DNA from: Nitrospiria bacterium
Lineage (GTDB): Bacteria > Nitrospirota > Nitrospiria > SBBL01 > JAADHI01
Assembly: GCA_046756925.1 (NCBI GenBank)
Contig: JBHHXH010000001.1
Coordinates: 20,337-84,336, forward strand
Length of the DNA: 64,000 bases
Reading direction: 5' to 3'
Below are positions 5,712 through 46,709 of the stretch, one piece after another. Within the stretch, counting starts at the first letter, position 1, and each line of letters begins with the position of its first letter. The notes beneath the pieces were generated by a model, which worked only from the letters and a program-made list of their open reading frames with translations, was not told the origin of the DNA and did not search any database. The translations under genes were made by a program, and so were the position numbers.

Positions 5712-7001
5712 TTACATCGCCAGGCTCAATGGATTTTCCATCGTCCGTTTCAAGACCTTTAAAAACTCGGCGGCCTGAAGGCCGTCGGCGATCCGGTGAT
5801 CGGTCGAGAGCGTCACTTTCATGATATGGCCGATGGCAATTTCTCCATTTGAAACGACCGGTTTTTCGATGATGGACCCGATGGCCAAGACCGCCGCCTC
5901 CGGCGGGGTGATGATGGCGCTGAAGGACTCCACGTCGTACATGCCGAGATTCGAGATGCTGAAGACCGCGCCGGTGTATTCCTCCGGTTTGAGTTTTTTA
6001 ACCCGCGCCCGCGCGACTTTGTCTTTCACTTCCGCTGAAATTTGACTCAGGGTAAGTTGATCGCAGTTCCGGATCACCGCCGTAATCACGCCTTCGGGCA
6101 GGCCGATGGCCAGGCCGATGTCAACGGTCTGGGAAACCTTGAGATGGTCGCCCCCATAGCTCGAACGAAAGGCGGGGAACTTCCGCAGTGTCAGTGCAGT
6201 TCCTTTGATAAAAAGATCGCTCAAAGAGGGCTTTGGCTCTTCACCGTCTTTTCCAAGGGCGTCGCGGAGGGGAAGGACCTTGCCCATGTCGATTTCGGAG
6301 GTCACATAAAAATGCGGTACGGGGGCCTTGCTCTGGCTCATCCGCTTGGCAATGGCCTTGCGCAGCTGGGTTAATTCGACCCGTTCCGCTTCGCTCAGAG
6401 GGGCAGCAGCCTGAGGCCTCAGAGGAAGAGTGTCGAAGCCTTCCAAGTCGCGTTGAATGATTCTGCCGCCGGGACCGCTGCCTTTGATCCGACTTAGATC
6501 GATGTGCCGTTCCGCTGCGATCTTTTTGGCCAGGGGCGAGGCCTTGATCTCGCTGTCCATTTGTCCCATGGATACGGACGGGTCTGGTGTCCCTTCGGTT
6601 TGCATCTTCGCTTCTTCCGCGCCATTTCTTGGGACGGGCGCAGACGTTTCGGCGGCCTTGTCTTCCGTTTTTTCTTGCACCGGGGTGGCAGGGGCTCCAC
6701 TTTCGCCGGCTTTACGGGTCCGTGGCATGGTCTCCTTTTTGAGCAGGGCCGTGATGTCTTCGTCGTCCCGCGCGATCAAAGCGATAAGGTCGCCGGAGGG
6801 CACGATGTGGCCGGGCGGGACGAGGATTTTTTTGAGGGTGCCGGAGGCAAAGGCCTCGAGGTCCATCACGGCCTTGTCGGTTTCGACCTCGGCGATGGGG
6901 TCGCCGCTTTCGACGGCATCGCCCTCTTTTTTATACCATTGGAGAAGGACCCCCTCTTCCATGGTATCGGTCAACTTTGGCATCACCACGCGGTTGGCCA
7001 T
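5712..7001 (-). CDS. pdhC: Dihydrolipoamide acyltransferase (E2) of a pyruvate-type 2-oxoacid dehydrogenase complex
   Basis: Lipoyl domain (EVETDKAV), E3-binding domain (ASPLAKKIAAERHIDL) and catalytic motif DHRIADG. Confidence 0.9.
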   Translation of the reverse strand: MANRVVMPKLTDTMEEGVLLQWYKKEGDAVESGDPIAEVETDKAVMDLEAFASGTLKKILVPPGHIVPSGDLIALIARDDEDITALLKKETMPRTRKAGESGAPATPVQEKTEDKAAETSAPVPRNGAEEAKMQTEGTPDPSVSMGQMDSEIKASPLAKKIAAERHIDLSRIKGSGPGGRIIQRDLEGFDTLPLRPQAAAPLSEAERVELTQLRKAIAKRMSQSKAPVPHFYVTSEIDMGKVLPLRDALGKDGEEPKPSLSDLFIKGTALTLRKFPAFRSSYGGDHLKVSQTVDIGLAIGLPEGVITAVIRNCDQLTLSQISAEVKDKVARARVKKLKPEEYTGAVFSISNLGMYDVESFSAIITPPEAAVLAIGSIIEKPVVSNGEIAIGHIMKVTLSTDHRIADGLQAAEFLKVLKRTMENPLSLAM

Positions 7002-29650: not shown

Positions 29651-31588
29651 TCATCTCCGAAAACGAACGAAAATTCGCCCCCGGATGCCGGGTGCCGGGA
29701 CACCGACGGCCTCTTCATAATCGGCGTCAAATAGATTATCGAGAACCACGCTCCATTTCCATTGCGCCGTCGGTGTCCAATGCGCCGCGAGATCGACCCG
29801 GAGATGCGCGTCCAAGTCTCGGTCTCCGGTCGCGATGGAAGAATCCACAGACTCTCCCACATACAAAATCGAGAGATTCGTGCTGAGGCTTGCTTTGGGC
29901 CGCCAATACGTATTCAGGCCACCACGCCATTCGGGCCGGTTGCGCAGTTCCTCCCGGCTTCCCTCGATATCCATGTGGGTATAGGTGAGGTGGGTGTTCA
30001 ACCAAAGATCGGGTGTCGATTTAAAAGACAGTTCGACTTCAAGGCCTTGGCCGGTCACCTCCGAACGGTTGACCAATGAAGGAGGGGGTCCTTCCGCCAA
30101 GTCGATTAAATTTTCATAGCGATTGTGAAAATAGACCGCGCTCACCTGGATACCCTCCAACGAAAGCATTTGTTCGATGCCGATTTCAAGGCTTTTGGCG
30201 GTTTCCGGCAGCAGCGAAGGGTTTCCGACAATGGCGTTGCCCAAGGCAAAAAAACTCGGTAGCTTGAAACCCTCTCCCCAGTCGGCTTTGAAGGTCGTTC
30301 CGCTCGAAACGACGGCATACATAAAACCGAGGCGCGGTGTGATTTCAGGATCGAAGCGCTCGGGATCGTCGACGCGAACGCTGCCTTGGAGACGGGCGCC
30401 CATTACCGGAATCATCTCGGTTTCGAGATAAGCGCTGTAGACCGCTCTGTCTTGTTCGAAACGATTGGGCAAGGGACCATCCAAAAACAAAAAACCCTCG
30501 CTCTCCCCCTTCTCGAGTTGGGCTTCCACCCCCAAACCGAAGTGCAGCGATGCAGAGGGAGAGAAGAGGGTATCGACACTCAAGTGTGAGCGATCGAAGT
30601 GATTGTCGCTCCGATTGGGCGGAATTCCAAAAGGGTCTCTGAGGCCCGGCGCCACCCCGGGTGAGTCGATCTCCTCTTGCCGATGATAATGGGCGGCATT
30701 GAGGGTGTATTCCCAAGAAGCGTTCAGGTCTTGACCGAAAGAAAATCCGGCCGTGAACATTTCTGCCTTGCGTTCGTCAAGTTCGGACAAGACGGCAAAT
30801 ACAGGACCGCCGCTGTCGTCCGGGAAGGATTCGCTTCGACTGCCGGACCAATGCAACGACAACTCCAGCCAGCTCGTATGGGAGGGCGCCAGTGACAGCT
30901 TGCCACCGATCTGCTTGCCGACAAAGCGGTTCCCCTCAACCACGCCGCCGTCATCGACATAAGAGAGGTTCAGTGCGTAGTCCGCGGAACCCAAGGGGCC
31001 GCGCGTTTCGACTCCGGCGCGGTAAAAGTCCCCCGCGCCGCCTCCCAAGTCGATGACCGTTTGGGGACGGGCCGTCCCGGAACGGGTCGTGATGTGGATG
31101 ACGCCCCCCATCGCATCCGATCCGTAGACCGAAGAAAGCGGTCCTCGGACGATTTCGATCCGTTCGATGCCAGCCGGACTCAGTGTCGACATATCGAAGG
31201 ATCCACCTCGGCTGTTGGTCGGGTCGTTGACCTTGACCCCGTCGATTAAGATCACGGTGAAATTCGGGTCGGCTCCCCGGACATAGACGGAAGCGATCCC
31301 GCCGCGCCCGCCCGGCTGATCGATGTGGAGGCCGGGCACTTGCCGAAGCAGGTCCACCACGCTGACCGCCTGCCTTGCCTCGATCTCCTCACGTTCGATC
31401 ACGGTGATCCCGGCCGATGCCGTTTCTATTGTCGCGGGAAGGTGCGAGGCCGAAACCACGAGGGGATCGAGTACCTTTGGAGGCTCCTGCTCACCAAGGA
31501 CTTCCCTTCCCAAACTCAAAAAAACGAACAGGAGGCCTAAGATTAGACGCACGGATGGACCCTTCGCCCGGCAGGAATATTCATTCAA
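29651..31588 (-). CDS. TonB-dependent outer-membrane receptor
   Basis: TonB-box-like DPLVVSAS, plug motifs (VYVRGADPNFTVILIDGVKVNDP, IEIVRGPLSSVYGSDAMGGVIHI) and a long beta-barrel region. The start is ambiguous: TTG 31588, or the in-frame GTG 36 nt downstream. Confidence 0.85.
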   Translation of the reverse strand: MNEYSCRAKGPSVRLILGLLFVFLSLGREVLGEQEPPKVLDPLVVSASHLPATIETASAGITVIEREEIEARQAVSVVDLLRQVPGLHIDQPGGRGGIASVYVRGADPNFTVILIDGVKVNDPTNSRGGSFDMSTLSPAGIERIEIVRGPLSSVYGSDAMGGVIHITTRSGTARPQTVIDLGGGAGDFYRAGVETRGPLGSADYALNLSYVDDGGVVEGNRFVGKQIGGKLSLAPSHTSWLELSLHWSGSRSESFPDDSGGPVFAVLSELDERKAEMFTAGFSFGQDLNASWEYTLNAAHYHRQEEIDSPGVAPGLRDPFGIPPNRSDNHFDRSHLSVDTLFSPSASLHFGLGVEAQLEKGESEGFLFLDGPLPNRFEQDRAVYSAYLETEMIPVMGARLQGSVRVDDPERFDPEITPRLGFMYAVVSSGTTFKADWGEGFKLPSFFALGNAIVGNPSLLPETAKSLEIGIEQMLSLEGIQVSAVYFHNRYENLIDLAEGPPPSLVNRSEVTGQGLEVELSFKSTPDLWLNTHLTYTHMDIEGSREELRNRPEWRGGLNTYWRPKASLSTNLSILYVGESVDSSIATGDRDLDAHLRVDLAAHWTPTAQWKWSVVLDNLFDADYEEAVGVPAPGIRGRIFVRFRR

Positions 31589-36240: not shown

Positions 36241-36311
36241 AGGGCATAAAAAAACCAAAGATTGATTTTATCCAATGACCCTGTTATAAAACCTGCATAA
36301 GAATATAAGAA

Positions 36312-36495
36312 CCTTCTCAGGTCAGCCCGCTTGATTGCCGGGCTTGAAAAGGGAATCCCGTGACAATCGGGAGCGGTCCCGCCGCTGTGTTGGGGGACGA
36401 AACCCACAAAAGAGCCACTGTCCAATCGATTCGGATGGGAAGGCGTGGGGAGTAGGGCGAACCCAGAGCCAGAAGACCTGCCTGGATGAAGGAAC
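36312..36495 (+). promoter_or_regulatory. Cobalamin riboswitch, copy 1 (aptamer)
   Basis: AAAAGGGAATCCCGTGACAATCGGGAGC...CCGCCGCTGT, GCCACTGTCC...GGATGGGAAGG and the B12 box AGCCAGAAGACCTGCC. Boundaries are approximate. Confidence 0.85.
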
Positions 36496-36540
36496 TCGCA
36501 AACGGTCTTCGATGGTCAGGACAGCGGGATGGAAAGAGAT

Positions 36541-36579: not shown

Positions 36580-36606
36580 CTTGAAGAAGGAAACACAACT
36601 CAAACA

Positions 36607-36757
36607 ATCTGAACGGCTGCTCGGGAAGGCGGTGTAAAACCGCAGCTGCCCCGCAACTGTGATGGGAACGAAACCACCAACGCCACTGTCTTGCAAAACC
36701 GGGATGGGAAGGGGTGGGAGTAGGTCGCCCAGAGCCAGGAGACCGGGCCTTTCAGAA
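36607..36757 (+). promoter_or_regulatory. Cobalamin riboswitch, copy 2 (aptamer)
   Basis: P1 TCTGAA/TTCAGA, GGGAAGGCGGTGTAAAACCGCAGCTGCCCCGCAACTGT, GCCACTGTC...GGGATGGGAAGG and the B12 box AGCCAGGAGACCGGGCC. It ends ~35 nt before the receptor ATG. Confidence 0.85.
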
Positions 36758-36790
36758 TCAAAATGACTTTCGAGGGAAAGGAAAATAACA

Positions 36791-38674
36791 ATGAAGAATC
36801 GAATGTGTGAAGTATGTGGTGCAACTGGTTTGTTTTTTGCCTTGTTGATGGGTTTCTCGGGTAACATATTTGCGGAAGAAATAACTGAAGAAGAGCCGAT
36901 GTTGCTGGACCCGATCGTCGTGACGGCGACACGACTTCCATCGCCTGTTCCAGAGGTCGGAAGCAGCATCACCATCATAAAAGGAAGAGATCTTGAGAAA
37001 AAACATATTAAAAGTGTCCCGGAAGCGCTTCGGGAAGTCGCCGGTGTGGATGTTGCGCAGTCGGGCGGACTCGGACAACAGACCTCGGTTTTTCTTCGGG
37101 GGGGGGAATCCAATCACACCCTGGTTCTGATCGATGGGGTCAAGGTCAATAGCCCCACGACAGGCGCTTTTGACTTTGGGGATCTGCTCGTTGAAAATAT
37201 CGCGCGGATTGAGGTGCTAAGAGGCCCCCAGAGTTCCCTTTACGGATCGGAGGCCATCGGTGGCGTCATCAACATCATCACGAAGCAAGGCAAGGGGAAG
37301 GCGTCGATCTCCTTGCTCACCGAGTTTGGATCCTTTGAAACCTTTCGGCAACGCCTTGGTGTTTCGGGTTCTGAAAACGACTTCGATTACACTTTTTCCA
37401 TTTCACGTCTGGAAAGCGAAGGGATTTCCGCGGCCAGTGAACAGCAGGGAAATAGCGAGGAAGACGGTTACAAAAACCTAACGGTGTCTCATCGGGTCGG
37501 CCTCAACTTCCTCAAAGACGGGCGGGCTGATTTCACCGTTCGATACATGACCGGAGAAGACGAGATCGATGCATCTGGCGGGAGTGGCGGAGACGACCTT
37601 AACCAAACCATCGAGCGGGATGCAATCTACACCTCACTGGTCCTCAAAAAACCAGTCACCGACTGGTGGACGCCCTCCCTTCTATTTTCCATCGCGGATG
37701 AAAATATTGAAACGAACGAGCCCGACGATCCGGCGGATACCTTCAATAACAGCCTCACAGAGATCAACGTCCAAGACCTTCTGTTTCTGAATGCATTTTC
37801 TCTTTTGAAAGAAAATACCCTTGTATTGGGGCTGGAGTACGATCAGAAGCAAGGGGCGAGCAGCAGCGGCGATTTCGACAAAGAAGTCGATATCAAATCG
37901 GTCTTTATAGAAGATCAAGCCGCTCTGCGGGATGCCTTATTCCTAACGGTAGGCGTTCGGTACGATGACCACAGTACATTCGGCGACAAGACAACGTTTC
38001 GTGTCACATCAGCCTATTTGATTGACGGATATGGGATGACCTTGCACGCCTCCTACGGCACCGGTTTCACGGCACCCTCATTTAATGACCTCTTCTTCGC
38101 GGGATTTTCTAATAAAGATCTACAAGCGGAGGAAAGCGAGGGGTTTGACATCGGCGTCAGAAAAGAATACCCCAGCAGCGGGGAACGCCCCACATCCTGG
38201 TTCGACGTGACTTATTTCAAAAATGATTTCGACGAGCTCATCGGTTTCTCTGGCTTTCAACCGTTTAACATTAACAAGGCCGAAGCAAGTGGTGTTGAAT
38301 TCACCAGCGGCATCGGTATTGTGAAAGGCTTGGTGATCAACCTTAGTTATACCTACATGGACAGCGAAGACAAAAGCACAGGGGACCCGCTCTTAAGAAG
38401 GGCCAAACACAAAGGCGCTTTTGGGATGGCTTATGATGCCACAAGCCGCCTCAATCTGAACCTGCTCGCAACCGTTGTGGAAGACCGGATTGACATTGGC
38501 GATGTGAAAATGGACGATTATGTCAAGGTCGATTTCGCATCCAGCTATCGCGCCACGGACCAGCTCGAAGGCTTCGCCCGCATCGAGAACCTCTTCGACC
38601 AGACATACGAAGAAATAGTTGGGTTTGGCACCGCTGGTTTCTCGGCTTATGGGGGGGTGACGCTGACCTTTTAA
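36791..38674 (+). CDS. btuB: TonB-dependent receptor, BtuB-like (riboswitch-controlled)
   Basis: TonB box DPIVVTATR, plug motifs (VFLRGGESNHTLVLIDGVKVNSP, IEVLRGPQSSLYGSEAIGGVINI) and a terminal ...GGVTLTF. Cobalamin riboswitches lie upstream. Confidence 0.85.
   Translation: MKNRMCEVCGATGLFFALLMGFSGNIFAEEITEEEPMLLDPIVVTATRLPSPVPEVGSSITIIKGRDLEKKHIKSVPEALREVAGVDVAQSGGLGQQTSVFLRGGESNHTLVLIDGVKVNSPTTGAFDFGDLLVENIARIEVLRGPQSSLYGSEAIGGVINIITKQGKGKASISLLTEFGSFETFRQRLGVSGSENDFDYTFSISRLESEGISAASEQQGNSEEDGYKNLTVSHRVGLNFLKDGRADFTVRYMTGEDEIDASGGSGGDDLNQTIERDAIYTSLVLKKPVTDWWTPSLLFSIADENIETNEPDDPADTFNNSLTEINVQDLLFLNAFSLLKENTLVLGLEYDQKQGASSSGDFDKEVDIKSVFIEDQAALRDALFLTVGVRYDDHSTFGDKTTFRVTSAYLIDGYGMTLHASYGTGFTAPSFNDLFFAGFSNKDLQAEESEGFDIGVRKEYPSSGERPTSWFDVTYFKNDFDELIGFSGFQPFNINKAEASGVEFTSGIGIVKGLVINLSYTYMDSEDKSTGDPLLRRAKHKGAFGMAYDATSRLNLNLLATVVEDRIDIGDVKMDDYVKVDFASSYRATDQLEGFARIENLFDQTYEEIVGFGTAGFSAYGGVTLTF
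37098..37106 (+). repeat. G9 homopolymer inside the btuB-like plug-coding region (codons R-G-G-E)
   Basis: Read directly: CTT CGG GGG GGG GAA. It is in frame as assembled. Confidence 0.95.
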
Positions 38675-38864
38675 ACACCTATATTTTATTAAAACTTGAG
38701 ATCGCCAGCCTTTTTTCACAACGCAATTGAAGGTTGTCTCGAAGGTAATCCAACGTGATGCCATCATCTTGAACGAACCGTTTTAGGAAGCAATGGCAAT
38801 TTAAAAATTGTCTCGTGTAACAAAGGGAAAGCAGGCGTATTGTGTCTCTACCCAACGTAAAATT

Positions 38865-38888
38865 TTTCCATTTCCATTTCCATTTCCA
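38865..38888. repeat. Hexanucleotide tandem repeat (TTTCCA) x 4
   Basis: Read directly. It lies in the 790-bp non-coding gap. Confidence 0.9.
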
Positions 38889-39464
38889 ATGGTTATGATG
38901 CGGAAATACGATCACGAAAGCCTCTCCGGACCGGGCCGCGCAACCGCTTCGTGAACTGGAGGAAAGCGGGTGGACACGACATCACCTTCAAACCGCTTGA
39001 CCTCATCCCCTTTCAGGATTCAGTTGAGATTGAGTGAAGGAACGGCCACCGTGCTTGTGAATACTTTCTTCAATCGATAAACTTATGAGAAGCAATCAAA
39101 GCGATTTTTATCGTGAAGAAGACTGTACGCTCTAAACGGGTATGTATTTTCGGACCAAGGAGAAATAAAGAAGGAATTAACAGCGATAACATTAAAATTG
39201 ACTCCTTTCTCTACTTAACGTGATCAGGCTGAGCCCCCTACGGGACCAAAGGGCTTTCTTCCAAGTTCTACCGGGTCGGCTTTTAAACGGGGCATGCTGC
39301 TGGCAATTTAATAATTGTGTATGTTAATTTCTGGCCAATGCCCACTAAAGTGCCTGTTTTGGCATATATTGCCTGGATAAGCGGCTGTTCACAGCCGAGC
39401 GGCTTGGCCGACCTTTATGCTGGTCTGGTTCTGGGCACCTCGCCGAAACAGCAAGGAAAATCCG

Positions 39465-40412
39465 ATGCGAATCGTCTCCTTTCTTCCCAGCGCCACCGAA
39501 ATCGTCTATGCCTTAGGGCTTGAAGATCAACTCGTCGGCGTGACGCACGAATGCGACTATCCACCCGGCGCGAAGAAAAAACCGGTGGCCGTCCGTAATG
39601 CCCTGGAGATGGCCGGCTTCAACCAAAGCGAGATCGATCAATGCGTCCGCGAAGCCGTACACACCGGAAAGAGCCTTTATGCCGTCGACGAAGCCCTGCT
39701 AAAAACAGCGGAACCGGACCTCATCCTTACGCAAGATCTTTGTCAGGTCTGTGCACCCTCCGGCAACGAAATGGCAAGGCTTTTAAAGCACCTGCCCAAG
39801 CCGCCGGAAATCCTGTGGTTGACACCCGCTTGCCTCGACGACATCTTCGAGAACATCAATGCAGTCGGTACCGCAACGGGCAAGGCCTCCGAGGCGAACG
39901 CGCTGGTGGATGAACTCCGGCTTCGGGTGAGAACGACTCAAGATCGTGTACAAAAACTTCATTCCCGTCCACGCGTCTTTTTCATGGAATGGCTCTCTCC
40001 GCCCTATTGCGGCGGCCACTGGGTCGGGGAAATGATCGCCCTCGCCGGGGGATCGGATCCATTTGCAAAACACGGCGCCGATTCTGTCCGCATCGCTTGG
40101 GACGAAATCGCTGCCTATGCACCGGAGATGCTCATCCTATCACCCTGCGGTTTCAATCTCTCTCAAGTCGTCGATCAAGCCGAACTGTTGACCCACTATT
40201 CCGGCTGGGCCTTGCTCCCCGCCGTGAAAAACGGCCGGGTCTTTGCCGTCGACGCCAACAGCTACTTCGCCCGGCCGGGACCACGGGTGGTGGACGGCAT
40301 CGAATTGCTGGCGCACCTTTTTCATCCGGGGCATTTCAAATGGAGGGGGCCGCCTACGGCTTTTCGTGTTTTGGATCGTGAGATGTTAGAATCCTTGACA
40401 TCATTACACTGA
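39465..40412 (+). CDS. BtuF-like cobalamin-binding protein without a signal peptide
   Basis: MRIVSFLPSATEIVYALGLEDQLVGVTHECDYPP, typical of the periplasmic-binding-protein cluster A fold, with no N-terminal hydrophobic segment. Start trimmed to ATG 39465. Confidence 0.75.
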   Translation: MRIVSFLPSATEIVYALGLEDQLVGVTHECDYPPGAKKKPVAVRNALEMAGFNQSEIDQCVREAVHTGKSLYAVDEALLKTAEPDLILTQDLCQVCAPSGNEMARLLKHLPKPPEILWLTPACLDDIFENINAVGTATGKASEANALVDELRLRVRTTQDRVQKLHSRPRVFFMEWLSPPYCGGHWVGEMIALAGGSDPFAKHGADSVRIAWDEIAAYAPEMLILSPCGFNLSQVVDQAELLTHYSGWALLPAVKNGRVFAVDANSYFARPGPRVVDGIELLAHLFHPGHFKWRGPPTAFRVLDREMLESLTSLH

Positions 40413-40418
40413 ATTGGG

Positions 40419-40691
40419 GTGAACCAGATCCCCCCTTTTATTGTTTCTCAGGCTCACCTAAACAAGACTAAAAGCTTTCTCAAACATTGGACCGAAATGA
40501 AAGATAAAGAGTATGCTGTTCTAGAATTACAAGAGGAAGCCATGAAGTATATAATTCGAGCCATCGCTAATTTGGCTGCTTATGAAAATACACGTACACA
40601 TGATTCACAGAGGTTTTTAGAATGGATAAAAAATAACCGAACTGATCTTTTTGATCCTAATGATCCTAAAACACAAGATGATCAGGAATGA
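40419..40691 (+). CDS. Hypothetical 90-aa protein, markedly AT-rich compared with its neighbours
   Basis: The ORF has a GTG start. Its composition is visibly lower in GC than the flanking genes. No family recognised. Confidence 0.4.
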   Translation: MNQIPPFIVSQAHLNKTKSFLKHWTEMKDKEYAVLELQEEAMKYIIRAIANLAAYENTRTHDSQRFLEWIKNNRTDLFDPNDPKTQDDQE

Positions 40692-40725
40692 AAATCCAAA
40701 GCAAAGAATGGAGCACTAACAAACC

Positions 40726-41325
40726 ATGCGCATCACAAAAGTCTACACCCGCACCGGGGACAAAGGCACGACCCGCCTGGCCAGGGGGCAGGAAATCCCA
40801 AAAGACCATCTTCGCATCGAAACCTACGGCACGGTCGATGAGCTGAACGCCATTGTCGGCCTGGCGCGGGCCTTCGCCCAAGAACTCCCGAAAACGATGC
40901 CGGAGCGAGATCGGCTCGACGAATGCCTGCACGGGATGCAGGACCGGCTCTTCGACATCGGCGGCATTCTGGCCTCGCCGCCTGGACAAGAATCGAAAGA
41001 GATGAAAGCGATCCTAAGCCAAGAAATCGACGCCCTGGAATCCTTGATGGACGACTGTCAAAAAGACCTTGAACCCTTGAAGGAATTCATCTTGCCGGGC
41101 GGCGGCAAGGTTGCGGCCTTTCTCCATCAGGCGCGGACGGTCTGCCGACGGGCGGAACGGCTTTGCGTGAGGCTCAACCGGGAGGAGGGTGTGCCGGAAG
41201 AAGTCCTCCGCTATTTGAACCGCTTGAGCGATGCCTTCTTTGTGCTTTCTCGCTGGATTGCGCAGGCCCAAAACGAACCTGAAACCCTGTGGCGGCGGCA
41301 TCAAAAGGATGAGCAGAAAATCTAA
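40726..41325 (+). CDS. PduO-type ATP:cob(I)alamin adenosyltransferase
   Basis: [18 protein letters not shown]...[15 protein letters not shown]...LPGG. 199 aa. Confidence 0.88.
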
Positions 41326-41997
41326 AACCCAATACCTCATGATTCAAGGCACCGGCTCGCACGTGGGCAAAAGCGTCATCGTCGCGGCGCTCTGCCGGAT
41401 CTTCGCCAACCAGGGTCTGCGCGGCGCTCCCTTTAAAGCGCAAAACATGGCGCTCAATTGATGGGAATCTGCGGCGGTTATCAGATAATGGGAAAGGTCC
41501 TGATCGATCCGGAAAAAATCGAGTCGGACCTGGGCGAGATGGAAGACCTCGGCCTCTTGGATATCGCCACCGAGTTCCGGCCAGGAAAGATCACGGCACG
41601 GGTTTCGTTGCCCCTTAGGGCATGTCCTCCTCTTTTTTCCGAAGCGGGGGAAATCCTATCTGGCTACGAAATTCATGCGGGCATCAGCCGCCCCATTGGA
41701 TCTCAGAATACACCCTTATTTACCTCTCCGTCTTCCGATGCCGGGCACGTCGCAGGCCTCATCGACTCCCCCGGCCTTCTCTTCGGCACGAGACTGTACG
41801 GCCTTTTCGAAAACGATGGGTTTCGGCGACGCTTCGTCAATGTCCTGCGAATCCGGAAAGGACTCACGCCGATCTCCACGGCGCTCATCCTATATCGTAA
41901 TATTGAAGACCGACAGATCGAAGACTGGGCGGGCTTCGTTTCGAAAGCCCTCAACCTCGATTGGATCGAAGCCATGATTGCGGAACACCATCGATGA
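41309..41997 (+). pseudogene. cobQ: Cobyric acid synthase (cobQ/cbiP) relic with a large internal deletion and a frame change
   Basis: The N-terminal 50 aa ([22 protein letters not shown]...FKAQNMALN) ends at TGA 41459-41461. It is followed immediately in another frame by the C-terminal GATase part (GICGGYQIMG...GYEIHAG...GTRLYGLFEN). The middle of the protein is absent. Confidence 0.8.
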
Positions 41998-42929
41998 AGC
42001 GCCTCGGATCTTTTTTCGTTTTCTTCGCTTGGTTTTTTCTGCAGTTTTCATCGGCCGCGGAATCGCGCGCTCCAAAACCGCAACGCATTGTTTCCCTGAC
42101 CCTCGGGTCGGACGAAATCCTGCTATCGCTTGTCGATCCCGGCCGCATCCTCGTCATTACCCGCTATGCCACCGACCCGGTGATCTCTCACGTGTCTCAC
42201 TTGGCGGGTGCGGTCCCCAACAAGATCTCACAAATCGGCACGGAATCGATCGTGGCCCTTCGGCCCGATATCGTCTTCGCCTCCAGTTATTCGGCGACGG
42301 AGACCATTGGCCAGCTAAAGGCCTTGGGGCTCCCCGTCGTGACCTTGGAAGCATTCTCAACCATTGAGGGCATTCAAGAAAATATCCGGCGCGTCGGCGA
42401 AGCGGTGGGAGAAACGGAGAAGGCCGAAGCCCTCATTGCCGAAATGAACAAAGATTTGGCGTCCATCGCCGACCGCCTTTCGGGAATCACCCGCCGGCCC
42501 GGCGTCCTTTCCTTTGGCTTGGAAGGTTGGACTTCCGGTCAGGAGACCTACTTTGACGAAATCGTCCGGCTGGCGGGCGGGAGAAACCTGGCGGCGGAGG
42601 CGGGCGTTGTCGGGCATCCGAAGCTTTCGATTGAAACGGTGGTGGACCTCGATCCAGAAATTCTCATCCTCAATGCCTGGCAACCGGACGCGGATGAGGC
42701 CGAGCGTTTATTGCGCCATCATCCGGTCCTGCAATCGGTCGCGGCCGCCAAACACGATCGTGTCTATTCCATTCCAGGGAAATACCTGACATCGGTCTCT
42801 CACTTTGTGGTTCGCGGCATCGAGGTCTTGGCCCGGTACCTTCATCCGTCTCTTTTCAATCACAGCCCTTCGCACAGCCCCTCGCACAGCCCCTCGCACG
42901 GCAGATCGAAGAGCCTCTCGAAGCAATGA
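41994..42929 (+). CDS. ABC-importer periplasmic substrate-binding protein (BtuF / iron-siderophore family)
   Basis: Signal peptide MKRLGSFFVFFAWFFLQFSSA, RIVSLTLGSDEILLSL and a cluster A binding-protein pattern. Start trimmed to ATG 41994. Confidence 0.8.
   Translation: MKRLGSFFVFFAWFFLQFSSAAESRAPKPQRIVSLTLGSDEILLSLVDPGRILVITRYATDPVISHVSHLAGAVPNKISQIGTESIVALRPDIVFASSYSATETIGQLKALGLPVVTLEAFSTIEGIQENIRRVGEAVGETEKAEALIAEMNKDLASIADRLSGITRRPGVLSFGLEGWTSGQETYFDEIVRLAGGRNLAAEAGVVGHPKLSIETVVDLDPEILILNAWQPDADEAERLLRHHPVLQSVAAAKHDRVYSIPGKYLTSVSHFVVRGIEVLARYLHPSLFNHSPSHSPSHSPSHGRSKSLSKQ
42861..42899 (+). repeat. 12-bp tandem repeat x 3 (CACAGCCC[C/T]TCG) encoding (HSPS)3 in the C-terminal tail of the binding protein
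   Basis: Read directly from the sequence. Confidence 0.9.
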
Positions 42930-43993
42930 GCCCAGCAGCACAAGAACTCTCGCGAAAAATATCCTCCCGGCCGAAGGGGGGCGGTGCCTTGCTGCCCCTC
43001 ACGATTCTGTTGATCGGGACGGTCTTCTTCGCCACGGCCACCGGGGCCGTCGATCTGTCCCTTGCGGTCGTGGCCCGTATCGTTTTAAACGCCTTCCCCT
43101 TTTTGGAATGGGGGGGGTGGGAAGCAGCCCAAGAAACGATCATCCTGTCGATCCGCCTGCCACGGGTGCTGCTCGCCGTCCTCATCGGCGGCGGGCTGGC
43201 CGTGGCCGGGGCGGCGTTGCAGGCCCTTTTCCGAAATCCCATGGCCGACCCGGGCATCATCGGGATTTCCAGCGGCGGGGCCTTGGCGTCGGTGGTCGCG
43301 ATCGCCTCCGGACTCTCCAGCCACCACCCCCTCGCGCTGCCGTCGGCCGCCTTTGCGGGCGCTTTGCTCTCACTGTTCTTGGTCTATAGCATCGGAGTCC
43401 GGCAGAAAACGCCCTCCTCCGAAACCCTGCTGCTCTCGGGCATCGCCGTCGGAATATTCATGGGCGCGATCCTTTCTCTCATTTTGACACGGCTGGATTC
43501 AAACGACGCCCTCCGCGAAACCTTCTTTTGGCTGATGGGGGGTCTCGATGGACGGGGCTGGCCCCACCTACAGGCCGCTTTGTGGCCGATCGGCATCGGC
43601 AGCTTGGGACTCCTTTTCTTTTCGAGAGATCTTAATATTCTTTTATTAGAAGGAGAGGGCGGTGCACAGACCCTCGGGATCGAACTCCGCTATACTCGAA
43701 AGATGCTCCTGGGTCTGTGCGCCCTTATTATCGGCGCGGCGGTCGCCTTCTCCGGCACGATCGCCTTCGTGGGCCTGATCGTGCCGCACATGATTCGGCG
43801 CTGGATCGGTCCCAACCATCGGACCCTGCTGCCCGCAACTTTTTTATCCGGCGGCATCCTGCTGGTTGGGGCCGACCTCCTCGCCCGCACCTTGATCGCA
43901 CCCGAAGAACTCCGTTTGGGAACAATTACCTCCCTCATCGGCGTACCGTTTTTTCTCCATCTGCTTATGCAAAACAGGAACAAAAGAACTTAG
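42926..43993 (+). CDS. FecCD/BtuC-family ABC-importer permease
   Basis: 355 aa with about 9-10 hydrophobic segments. Motifs RLPRVLLAVLIGGGLAVAGAALQ and GTIAFVGLIVPHMIR. Confidence 0.88.
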   Translation: MSPAAQELSRKISSRPKGGGALLPLTILLIGTVFFATATGAVDLSLAVVARIVLNAFPFLEWGGWEAAQETIILSIRLPRVLLAVLIGGGLAVAGAALQALFRNPMADPGIIGISSGGALASVVAIASGLSSHHPLALPSAAFAGALLSLFLVYSIGVRQKTPSSETLLLSGIAVGIFMGAILSLILTRLDSNDALRETFFWLMGGLDGRGWPHLQAALWPIGIGSLGLLFFSRDLNILLLEGEGGAQTLGIELRYTRKMLLGLCALIIGAAVAFSGTIAFVGLIVPHMIRRWIGPNHRTLLPATFLSGGILLVGADLLARTLIAPEELRLGTITSLIGVPFFLHLLMQNRNKRT

Positions 43994-44208
43994 GCTAAAT
44001 GGATCAGAGATACCGAAGCGGTCCGCCCGGGCCACCAAAGCAATGCACGATGGAAGCACTGATAGTTCATTGTTGATAAGTTTTCAATTTTTCTTGTCTA
44101 ATCCGGCAACGGCAAAAACGGGGCTAAAGTTTTATTCCCCCTCACCGATGAGGAGGTTGTAACCCGGAATATCAGTAATATCTGCGCTGCAGCCTAGGAG
44201 GGAACATC

Positions 44209-45285
44209 ATGAAACTGATACCGCACGATTTGCCAGGTGCCCTGTCTTCAATGTCTTCGTTAACCCGGCACGATAAGGACCTGAAAACGCTTGAAGACAT
44301 GGAAGCATCTCGGCTTCAAATCAATATTGAAAAAAGGTCCGATTTTACGCTTTTTACCAAGGATGGGGACAAGGTAACCCTCTCTTCTCTTGCAAGCCTA
44401 GAGGCCGGCACGACAACTTACACCTCTGAAGGCACCCTGACGGGAGAAGCGGCCCAAACGGAGGTCGATGCATTTCAGGTAAACAAGGCCTTCGAGCTTG
44501 AACTGTCCGTCGAAGGCGACCTGAATAAACAGGAGATCAAGGACATCCGGCGCGCCTTTACGCAAATGCGGAAAATGGTTAAGAATTATATTACCGGCAG
44601 AGAAGATAAGGCCATGCATCGGGCATCGAAGATCATGAACTTTAAGTCGATTTCGGGTTTTGAAGCCGTTTATCAATATGTGCGAACGGCTTCGGCTTAC
44701 GAGGGATCGCTGGAGGACGGCATGCCACTCCCTCTCGGCCCGGGAAACCCGGCCCCAGCCCCCGCCGTTATGGAACCGGTTAAAGAAGAACCCGCGCCAC
44801 CCCAAGAAACGCTTGCTTCCCAGCCCCTTCCTGTTTCCGATCCGAGCAGCGCGGGCCCCGCCGCCGTCCAAACGGTCGCACCGTCCGTGGATGACCCTGC
44901 CCCTGTCTCCCCGCTTCCCACCAACGAGAGTACGGGTGAGGACATCCCTTCTGCACCGGGTTTAACCAATGTGTCACCCGCCAAACCCTTTATACAGGTT
45001 GAGATTCATCAGCTTGTTGAAAAGATGACGCAAGTGGTTGTTGAATCGAATGCAGATACTGGAAAACTCGCGAAATATACAAGCCAATACCTCAATTCTT
45101 TATCAGCAAGTTATTCTCGGACGGAGGATGGATACGCTTTCGAGCTCAAGCTCGTCAAACAAATCCAAGCTGAATTTAAATTGAGCATCCAAGAAGCCAT
45201 CGGAGCCGGAAAAGCCGAGGAAAATGAAGACGCATCCGTCGCCGCGCATCCCGCTGCCCAAGATGAAGAGACGGTCATGGCCTAG
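44209..45285 (+). CDS. Hypothetical protein with a central proline-rich linker
   Basis: 358 aa with the RBS TAGGAGGG. Two structured-looking ends are separated by a Pro/Ala/Ser-rich stretch of ~90 aa. No family recognised. Confidence 0.5.
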   Translation: MKLIPHDLPGALSSMSSLTRHDKDLKTLEDMEASRLQINIEKRSDFTLFTKDGDKVTLSSLASLEAGTTTYTSEGTLTGEAAQTEVDAFQVNKAFELELSVEGDLNKQEIKDIRRAFTQMRKMVKNYITGREDKAMHRASKIMNFKSISGFEAVYQYVRTASAYEGSLEDGMPLPLGPGNPAPAPAVMEPVKEEPAPPQETLASQPLPVSDPSSAGPAAVQTVAPSVDDPAPVSPLPTNESTGEDIPSAPGLTNVSPAKPFIQVEIHQLVEKMTQVVVESNADTGKLAKYTSQYLNSLSASYSRTEDGYAFELKLVKQIQAEFKLSIQEAIGAGKAEENEDASVAAHPAAQDEETVMA

Positions 45286-45317
45286 TCGCGGTTTTGCACA
45301 CAAGGAACATCTCCCCG

Positions 45318-45348
45318 CGCCTCATCCGATCGGATGAGGCGTTTTTTT
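45318..45348 (+). terminator. Intrinsic terminator
   Basis: CGCCTCATCCG-at-CGGATGAGGCG followed by T7. Confidence 0.85.
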
Positions 45349-45494
45349 CCGAAAATCCATCGAATTTCATCATATAACCTGTTTAAAAACAACCACTTTT
45401 TATTTATACCCAAGCGCCTTCCCCGTCGCCTGGCTGGTTGCCTCGGCAATGGGCTCTATGATATATAAGGTCCTTTTATTCAGGCCGTTTTCAA

Positions 45495-46709
45495 GTGAAA
45501 AAAACAACCAAAGATTGGATCGTGCAAGGCGAGTCTGTCCTCATGCCCAACTATTCCCGCTTCCCTCTGCTTCTGAAAAGCAGCCAGGGGGCGACGATCA
45601 TCGACCACGAGGGACATCCTTACCTCGATTTTGTCAGCGGCATCGCGGTCAACAGTCTCGGGCATGGCGACTCCCAACTGATCGGTGCGCTTCAAAAGCA
45701 GGCCGAAACCCTGCTGCATGTGTCCAACCTGTATTATACGATCCCGCAGATCGAATTGGCGGCGCGGCTGGTAAACCATTCGTTTGCAGACAAGGTCTTT
45801 TTCTGCAACAGCGGGGCGGAGGCGGTTGAAGCCGCCATCAAACTGGCGCGCAAGCATGCCAAGGATGCCATGCCTGGCGGGCGCTTTGAAATCATCGCGG
45901 CGGAGAACGCGTTTCACGGCAGGACCCTGGCCGCCCTCTCCGCAACCGGACAATCGAAATATCATCATGGTTTCGAGCCGCTCCTTCCAGGATTTAAGCA
46001 CGTTCCCTTTGACGATGCCGGTGCGATCGAAGCGGCCATTACGCCCCATACCGCCGCAGTACTTCTGGAGCCTATTCAGGGGGAGGGCGGTGTCCGCATT
46101 CCGAAACCCGGCTACCTGTCTTCGGTCCGAAGACTCTGCGACCGGCATGGGATCCTTCTCATCTTCGACGAAGTACAGACCGGGATGGGCCGGACGGGAA
46201 ATCTTTTCGCCTATGAGGCCGCCGGCATCGAACCGGATATCATGACCCTCGCGAAGGGCTTGGGCGGCGGCATCCCCATCGGTGCCCTGCTGGCCAAAGA
46301 CACGGTGGCGCAATCGTTTCAGCCGGGAAGCCATGCATCGACCTTTGGGGGCAATCCCCTCGCCTGCACCGCGGGCATCGTCGTGATCGACCGGCTAACA
46401 AGGGATGACGCCTTCTTGGCGTCGGTCCGCCAAAAAGGCGACTCTCTCCTGAAAGGCCTGGAGGCCCTAGGGGGGAAAACACCGCTAATTAAAGCGTTAC
46501 GAGGTCGGGGATTGATGGCGGCCGTCGACCTGGGTGTTCCGGCACTCGATGTGATTGAAGCAGGGCAGGGGCGCGGACTTCTGCTGAACAGGACCTCCGA
46601 ATACACCCTTCGGTTGATTCCGCCCTTGACGATCCAACGTGCGGAGATCGACCGGATGCTGGAGACCTTAAGCGATATATTGATGGAGCGAACGGATGCC
46701 GAAGCTTGA
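45495..46709 (+). CDS. argD: Acetylornithine aminotransferase
   Basis: Class III aminotransferase: YLDFVSGIAVNSLGH, DEVQTGMGRTG and PLP-Lys context TLAKGLGGG. Lies in an arg operon. Confidence 0.9.
   Translation: MKKTTKDWIVQGESVLMPNYSRFPLLLKSSQGATIIDHEGHPYLDFVSGIAVNSLGHGDSQLIGALQKQAETLLHVSNLYYTIPQIELAARLVNHSFADKVFFCNSGAEAVEAAIKLARKHAKDAMPGGRFEIIAAENAFHGRTLAALSATGQSKYHHGFEPLLPGFKHVPFDDAGAIEAAITPHTAAVLLEPIQGEGGVRIPKPGYLSSVRRLCDRHGILLIFDEVQTGMGRTGNLFAYEAAGIEPDIMTLAKGLGGGIPIGALLAKDTVAQSFQPGSHASTFGGNPLACTAGIVVIDRLTRDDAFLASVRQKGDSLLKGLEALGGKTPLIKALRGRGLMAAVDLGVPALDVIEAGQGRGLLLNRTSEYTLRLIPPLTIQRAEIDRMLETLSDILMERTDAEA

Follow-up and report, generated by a model that had tools for sequence, protein, structure and literature searches.

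A probable cobQ pseudogene formed by internal deletion within a corrinoid-uptake operon of a Nitrospiria bacterium

Adenosylcobyric acid synthase (CobQ/CbiP) combines an ATP-dependent synthetase domain (CbiA/AAA_26, dethiobiotin-synthetase-like) with an amidotransferase domain (GATase_3). Here we describe what is left of its gene at 41309-41997 on the plus strand of a 64-kb stretch of DNA, hereafter the window, from a metagenome-assembled genome (MAG) of a Nitrospiria bacterium. Two short open reading frames (ORFs) lie there between an adenosyltransferase gene and a btuF-like gene, and we consider it very probable that together they represent a cobQ/cbiP pseudogene generated by internal deletion. 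As a pseudogene it would be an ordinary one, an instance of ordinary gene loss. The elements concerned are the following, where L-numbers denote the sequences with which the window was compared:

41309-41461, plus strand: 5' remnant of cobQ, 50 codons and TGA, encoding the P-loop start of the synthetase domain
41456-41466, plus strand: deletion junction, AAT-TGATG-GGA, placed by codon-level comparison with L004, L006, L008 and L003
41461-41997, plus strand: 3' remnant of cobQ, 178 codons and TGA in the native cobQ frame, encoding the second half of the amidotransferase domain and the C-terminal tail
41470-41472, plus strand: TGC codon of the nucleophile Cys (GICGGYQ), kept; Cys in 139 of 139 aligned relatives
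41545-41547, plus strand: GAC (Asp) codon in place of the near-invariant Gly of GLGLL; Gly in 147 of 148 relatives, the column being invariant in a 34-member clade
41797-41799, plus strand: TAC (Tyr) codon in place of the near-invariant His of HG(L/I)F; His in 148 of 149 relatives and Tyr in none, the column being invariant in the 34 clade CobQ

The cobQ remnants and their junction

The first ORF (the head) starts with the ATG at 41309, overlapping the 3' end of the adenosyltransferase gene by 17 nt, and ends with the TGA at 41459-41461. The A of this stop codon is shared with the ATG at 41461-41463 (TGATG), which opens the second ORF (the tail) in a different frame. The tail begins three residues ahead of the nucleophile Cys, corresponds to the final ~177 residues of CobQ, and terminates with a TGA at 41995-41997 that overlaps the btuF start (ATGA). 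Between them the two pieces still contain the P-loop start, the GICGG nucleophile motif, GYEIH and the C-terminal tail of the protein. The tail is identical to NCBI protein MFQ5596469.1 (169 aa), from a 94-kb contig of a Nitrospiria MAG, which the public record labels only 'hypothetical protein', with no flag for a cobQ pseudogene.

In both Pfam and NCBIfam the best family for either remnant is CobQ/CbiP, adenosylcobyric acid synthase. The head matches positions 2-41 of 125 in Pfam CbiA (E 8e-10), 1-41 of 477 in the NCBIfam cobQ model TIGR00313 (E 5e-16; 58.7 bits against a cut-off of 309.9) and 2-43 of 480 in NF001989 (72.2 bits against 273). The tail matches positions 79-195 of 196 in Pfam GATase_3 (E 2e-21), 323-476 of TIGR00313 (E 1e-32; 113.6 bits) and 325-478 of NF001989 (98.4 bits). 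Positions 42-322 of TIGR00313 are thus represented in neither piece, and the remnants score 59-114 bits on CobQ models with cut-offs of 273-310, compared with 504-575 bits for the intact CobQ of L004. An alignment with 32 full-length CobQ sequences placed the head at residues 1-48 and the tail at residues 334-510 of a 510-aa CobQ (P0003), leaving 285 residues unaccounted for.

A hidden Markov model (HMM) of the clade, built from five CobQ (those of four syntenic relatives and L003), found only two segments in the six-frame translation of the window, at HMM positions 2-48 (E 1e-26) and 327-505 (E 2e-64), and detected no further frameshift within the tail. Searches of all six frames with the relatives' proteins (tblastn and HMMs, filters off) gave no significant relic of the cobQ middle elsewhere in the 64 kb. 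Two weak CobQ matches, one on the minus strand at 39516-39698 within an intact binding-protein gene (E 0.01) and the other at 44773-44871 (E 0.13-0.17), were judged to be chance.

A reading made beforehand from the sequence only had described the first 50 codons as a CobQ/CbiP N-terminus running into the TGA at 41459-41461, and the ATG at 41461 as opening another frame that encodes the last ~178 aa of CobQ from the nucleophile motif onwards. It had further supposed that about 250-300 central residues are lacking, including most of the synthetase domain and the first half of the GATase domain, and that the His of the HG(L/I)F motif is Tyr. The ORFs, the profile matches, the count against P0003 and the aligned relatives agree with it on each of these points.

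When the interval from the AAT codon of ..QNMALN to the GGx codon of GICGG is compared codon by codon, it measures 5 nt (TGATG) in the window, 858 nt in L004, L008 and L003, and 870 nt in L006. The net loss is therefore 853 or 865 nt, each of which is 1 mod 3, and hence the reading frame breaks at the junction. In the relatives, the two boundaries of the interval have no more than 2-3 nt in common, and no repeat is present that could explain recombination or a collapse during assembly.

Full-length relatives and relaxed constraint

Relatives were found by searching with the downstream BtuF-like protein, to which they are 57-66% identical. In all four that are syntenic with the window, a full-length cobQ stands between the adenosyltransferase gene and btuF:

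L004: cobQ, 517 aa, at the syntenic position
L006: cobQ, 513 aa, at the syntenic position
L008: cobQ, 502 aa, at the syntenic position
L170: cobQ, 508 aa, at the syntenic position

The gene order common to the window and these relatives is binding protein, variable insert, adenosyltransferase, cobQ, btuF, btuC, an unknown gene, argD, argF and argG, with argH following next in the window, L004, L006 and L008. The best matches of both remnants are the syntenic orthologues. The head is 86-90% identical to their N-termini, as the relatives are among themselves, and up to 95% identical to other members of the clade. This clade comprises 29 clusters that are 53-100% identical to L004 CobQ, 26 of them 500-563 aa in length; the shorter ones are a cluster of 399 aa, labelled partial, and two of 488 aa. 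With full-length orthologues at the same position in four relatives, the earlier proposal that a large internal deletion left only two pieces of one ancestral cobQ is supported. The only named NCBI Nitrospiria match in a search with L004 CobQ was MFQ5588893.1, which we considered as a second, intact cobQ of this MAG and set aside; its accession lies ~7,600 from those of the window proteins MFQ5596468 and MFQ5596469, and it probably belongs to another MAG of the same submission.

Constraint on the tail was assessed by amino-acid relative-rate counts rather than dN/dS, synonymous sites being saturated at 65-75% protein identity. Sites were counted at which one genome alone departs from the other three, with L008 as the outgroup. 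In the tail, 23 of 173 sites (13.3%) carry window-specific changes and 10 are specific to L008; across eight neighbouring genes the corresponding figures are 134 of 2536 sites (5.3%) and 270 (23:10 against 134:270, Fisher odds ratio 4.6, p 5e-5). The tail has therefore evolved ~2.5 times as fast as its neighbours. It is 52-53% identical to the relatives, compared with 60-61% between L004 or L006 and the outgroup L008 in the same segment, a pair that, judged by the neighbouring genes, is about as distant or more so. Among 149 relatives it departs from 4 of 32 near-invariant columns (His113Tyr, Gly29Asp, Tyr111 to Arg and Leu10 to Met), and the columns that are invariant in the 34 clade CobQ include those of the His and Gly, as well as the Met9 column, where the window has Ile.

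The neighbouring genes cover their Pfam profiles from end to end and show no excess of rate, which confirms the earlier impression that they are intact. The cobQ pieces thus combine a disrupting lesion (the net loss of 853-865 nt and the TGA at the junction), full-length orthologues at the syntenic position (L004, L006, L008 and L170) and, in the tail, constraint that is relaxed relative to the adjacent genes.

We infer that the direction of the event was deletion in this lineage. On this reading an ancestral cobQ of ~505 codons would have stood between the adenosyltransferase gene and btuF, and the lineage of this MAG would have lost ~853 nt (~285 codons) of it, and with it almost the whole ATP-dependent synthetase domain as well as ~78 profile positions from the start of the amidotransferase domain. 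Translation of the head would halt at the TGA formed by the junction, and from the overlapping ATG the tail could be translated in the frame that it had originally. Thereafter the tail would gather amino-acid changes at a relaxed rate, while the flanking uptake and adenosylation genes would stay under purifying selection.

Neither product should be an enzyme, because the domain that binds substrate and ATP has been lost, only half of the amidotransferase fold survives, and Tyr has replaced the presumed catalytic His. A catalytic role for this residue, the His of HG(L/I)F, is expected from class I amidotransferases in general; of the active-site pair the Cys is kept but the His is replaced. Both domains are incomplete, and the two pieces lie in different frames and fall below the equivalog cut-offs. 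Compared with CobQ/CbiP proper, then, the window encodes a version with ~285 residues absent, a broken frame and a His-to-Tyr exchange. Loss of cobQ function probably follows, in keeping with the earlier assertion that the gene is unable to make cobyric acid.

Several observations weigh against this interpretation or limit it. The end points of the deletion are ambiguous by a few nucleotides, within about 41456-41463. The excess of rate is moderate, and a classical relative-rate test against L004 alone gave 26 against 13 changes (p 0.053). The head displays no acceleration, with one specific change in 40 sites, although 40 sites are too few to be informative. No genome nearer than ~64-66% BtuF identity was found, and the deletion is consequently undatable against sister taxa. 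Finally, the tail ORF is still open; yet by simulation the excess of ~18 amino-acid changes would equate to ~26 neutral nucleotide substitutions, under which the ORF stayed free of stop codons in about half of the runs (P about 0.4-0.5). Since neutral drift keeps it open so often, we discounted the open frame as a sign of selection or function.

For genome annotation, the consequence is that a domain-based pathway caller could take the GATase_3 and CbiA matches for cobQ, wrongly crediting this organism with cobyric acid synthesis. The locus offers a clean example of gene loss from the B12 pathway, set against four relatives in which the gene is intact, and reveals no new mechanism.

Alternative explanations

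The best surviving alternative, which we nevertheless regard as unlikely, is that the remnant ORFs have been kept open by selection as a relay for translational coupling between the adenosyltransferase gene and btuF-btuC. Ribosomes would pass from the adenosyltransferase gene to the 50-codon ORF, across TGATG to the 178-codon ORF, and across ATGA to btuF and btuC, which would sustain expression of the transporter and avoid polarity. Consistent with this, every junction in the series is an overlap (41309-41325, TGATG at 41459-41463, ATGA at 41994-41997, and 42926-42929), the overlap of cobQ and btuF is ancestral (L004, L006 and L008), the tail is in its native frame and so ends exactly at the native stop, and no clear Shine-Dalgarno motif can be read ahead of btuF. 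If true, a dead gene would serve as a translational bridge that keeps B12 uptake expressed. However, selection is not needed to account for an open frame of 178 codons, given the simulated probability reported above, and the arrangement may reflect nothing more than the particular deletion that chanced to occur.

It is much less probable that the relic is an artefact of assembly, in which a full-length cobQ is really present and reads were collapsed or mis-joined to give a false deletion of 853 nt. The window does come from a metagenome-assembled genome. Against an artefact stands the Logan contig SRR29324606_151845 (L172; 2562 bp), the product of a separate assembly pipeline applied to the public run SRR29324606 and recovered as the second member of the tail protein's cluster, which is 100% identical to window positions 40801-43362 and reproduces the junction base for base. 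This contig possibly derives from the MAG's own read set, and a full-length variant may co-exist in the population, two further points that weigh against the pseudogene. Nonetheless, the relatives lack a boundary repeat capable of causing collapse, the shared sequence being 2-3 nt at most, and an assembly error can yield neither a lineage-specific excess of substitutions nor the exchange of His for Tyr. A second, smaller deletion in the spacer upstream of cobQ, described below, also fits a locus that is genuinely eroding. The sequence-only reading had named mis-assembly, and membership of the 178-aa fragment in an independent short family, as the outcomes that would overturn it; for the first, no full-length copy was seen in place of the relic, and the second assembler gave the identical junction.

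The second outcome, that the 178-aa ORF is an independent functional protein, either a stand-alone amidotransferase of the GatD type or part of a conserved short family, is the least credible of all. The ORF is intact and begins with an ATG of its own, the nucleophile Cys and GYEIH are retained, and NCBI annotates a protein here; moreover, databases contain many CobQ-like proteins of 160-260 aa, several of which start near GICGG. These short forms fall on a continuum of lengths, however, and the one that was checked (P0009) is a gene call cut by a contig end, beginning 18 nt from the edge of a contig of 1.1 kb. With the tail as query, protein searches gave nothing above 43% identity except its own genome, scans of genome and metagenome contigs gave no copy of the relic above 43% among the matches listed, not even that of the window's own genome, and outside this genome no match exceeded 55% among those listed.

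Stand-alone CobQ-type domains are known from GatD, a subunit of lipid II isoglutaminyl synthase (PDB 5n9m and 6gs2), which is the nearest solved structure by sequence and shares the same domain and ICGGYQ motif. GatD spans the complete domain (243-251 aa), has its Cys near residue 94 and is paired with MurT, features that the window ORF lacks: it has 3 residues before the Cys in place of ~90, ~78 profile positions of the fold are absent, and no MurT-like partner is encoded nearby, the neighbours being genes for transport and adenosylation. Furthermore, the tail aligns to GatD residues 92-134 only (E 0.002), compared with residues 80-191 for an intact relative (E 2e-8), and its second active-site residue is Tyr. 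Because of the length continuum and contig-end truncation, the mismatch with GatD and the ~2.5-fold excess of rate over the neighbouring genes, we rejected a short family and retain the cobQ pseudogene as the explanation of 41309-41997.

The surrounding operon and corrinoid supply

The remnants are embedded in an operon for corrinoid uptake and adenosylation, whose other principal features are as follows:

36304-36499 and 36598-36765, plus strand: two complete cobalamin riboswitch aptamers in tandem (Rfam RF00174, 118.6 and 87.9 bits, gathering score 31.5)
36791-38674: gene for a TonB-dependent receptor, which opens the operon downstream of the tandem riboswitches; receptor domains matched
39465-40412, plus strand: first binding-protein gene of the operon (Pfam Peripla_BP_2; 75-76% identical to L004 and L006)
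40726-41325, plus strand: PduO-type cob(I)yrinic acid a,c-diamide adenosyltransferase, intact (Pfam Cob_adeno_trans 1-171 of 171; TIGR00636, 181 bits)
41994-42929, plus strand: BtuF-like periplasmic binding protein, intact (Pfam Peripla_BP_2 1-234 of 235), directly after cobQ in every relative
42926-43993, plus strand: BtuC-like permease, intact (Pfam FecCD 1-310 of 311; the best NCBIfam models are those of BtuC, below their cut-offs)

The adenosyltransferase is 88% identical to those of L004 and L006 and shows no excess of rate. Its ancestral stop codon is gone and it now ends five codons later, inside the cobQ head, and the spacer of ~140-170 bp that separates the two genes in relatives is absent from the window. 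As both the middle of cobQ and this upstream spacer have been lost, the locus has suffered at least two deletions. In L004 (6333-6474), L006 (6316-6459) and L008 (6294-6495) the spacer carries a conserved, hairpin-rich element with the segments CCCCCTTTGACAAAGGGGG ... GGGGGATTTATC ... AAATCCCCCC ... CCCCCCTTTGCTAAAGGGGGG. The element had no Rfam match at gathering thresholds, and no copy of it occurs elsewhere in the window, the affected site being 41297-41325.

The locus keeps its intact uptake genes, the adenosyltransferase and both riboswitches, and no other cob gene lies within the 64-kb window; cobU, cobT, cobS and btuD were not detected there by tblastn and HMM searches in six frames with filters off. 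A CobS match at 39302-39451 (E 0.26 by tblastn, with an overlapping HMM match of about E 2) was judged to be chance. In L006, L008, L170 and Candidatus Manganitrophus, cobU-cobT-cobS stand just upstream of either the first binding-protein gene or the adenosyltransferase gene. On the genes surveyed, those of the 64-kb window, a shift from synthesis to salvage is plausible, and the cell may now depend on imported corrinoids.

Cobamides are used by 86% of bacteria and made by 37%, and partial cobamide pathways, which may be on the way to loss, occur in 17% (bioRxiv 10.1101/342006). Eroding genes of the pathway are documented as cob pseudogenes in Mycobacterium leprae and as a deletion of cobF in M. 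tuberculosis (PMC8192938). The present locus fits the common pattern of bacteria that rely on corrinoids made by others. As in corrinoid-importing bacteria with eroding cob genes, one biosynthetic gene is dead and uptake, adenosylation and riboswitch control are kept, although here the pattern is known from one locus of one MAG.

Candidatus Manganitrophus (CP114555; L171), a more distant member of the same class, has a like operon with a TonB-dependent receptor, adenosyltransferase, btuF and btuC. It differs from that of the window in possessing cobU-cobT-cobS, as well as btuD and tonB after btuC. The slot corresponding to cobQ (L171 7321-8004) holds a gene for a 227-aa Dph6-like or PAB0415-like ATP pyrophosphatase, with neither cobQ nor a relic of it.

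Elsewhere in the operon, a cobalamin riboswitch precedes the receptor gene in L004 as it does in the window. A second gene for a TonB-dependent receptor lies 5 kb upstream of the first, on the minus strand (29651-31588); its product shares 28% identity with the receptor of L004, and no riboswitch was found with it at Rfam gathering thresholds. Between the operon's receptor gene and the first binding-protein gene are 742 bp (38675-39416; G+C 0.44, compared with 0.53 for the window), an interval of only 27 bp in L004. We recognised no convincing gene in these 742 bp (no ORF of at least 90 aa, no Rfam match and no gene relic), and a search of 38600-45500 with Rfam at a permissive threshold returned no RNA family.

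The first binding protein begins MRIVSFLPSATEIV and has no hydrophobic leader, and the second, BtuF-like one begins MKRLGSFFVFFAWFFLQFSSAAES, which resembles a signal peptide. Judged from these N-termini, of the operon's two corrinoid-binding proteins one may be cytoplasmic and the other periplasmic. Downstream of btuC, in the place of the ABC ATPase gene btuD, 43994-45285 (plus strand) holds the gene for a Pro/Ala-rich protein of 358 aa that matches no Pfam or NCBIfam family. Conserved counterparts occupy this position in L004, L006, L008 and L170, and the window protein is 33-53% identical to those of L004, L006 and L008.

The slot that separates the first binding-protein gene from the adenosyltransferase gene varies in content. 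The window has a 90-codon ORF there (40419-40691, plus strand; G+C 0.36, GC3 0.30) with no family match. The same slot is occupied by DUF559 and NACHT genes in L004 (3228-5718) and L006 (3055-5716), by an OLD-like TOPRIM gene in L008 (3863-5683) and by an unknown gene of 608 aa in L170 (3382-5208), and L170 also carries a VapB-PIN pair after its adenosyltransferase gene (5883-6478). This part of the B12 operon has the look of an insertion hot spot for defence or toxin-antitoxin genes.

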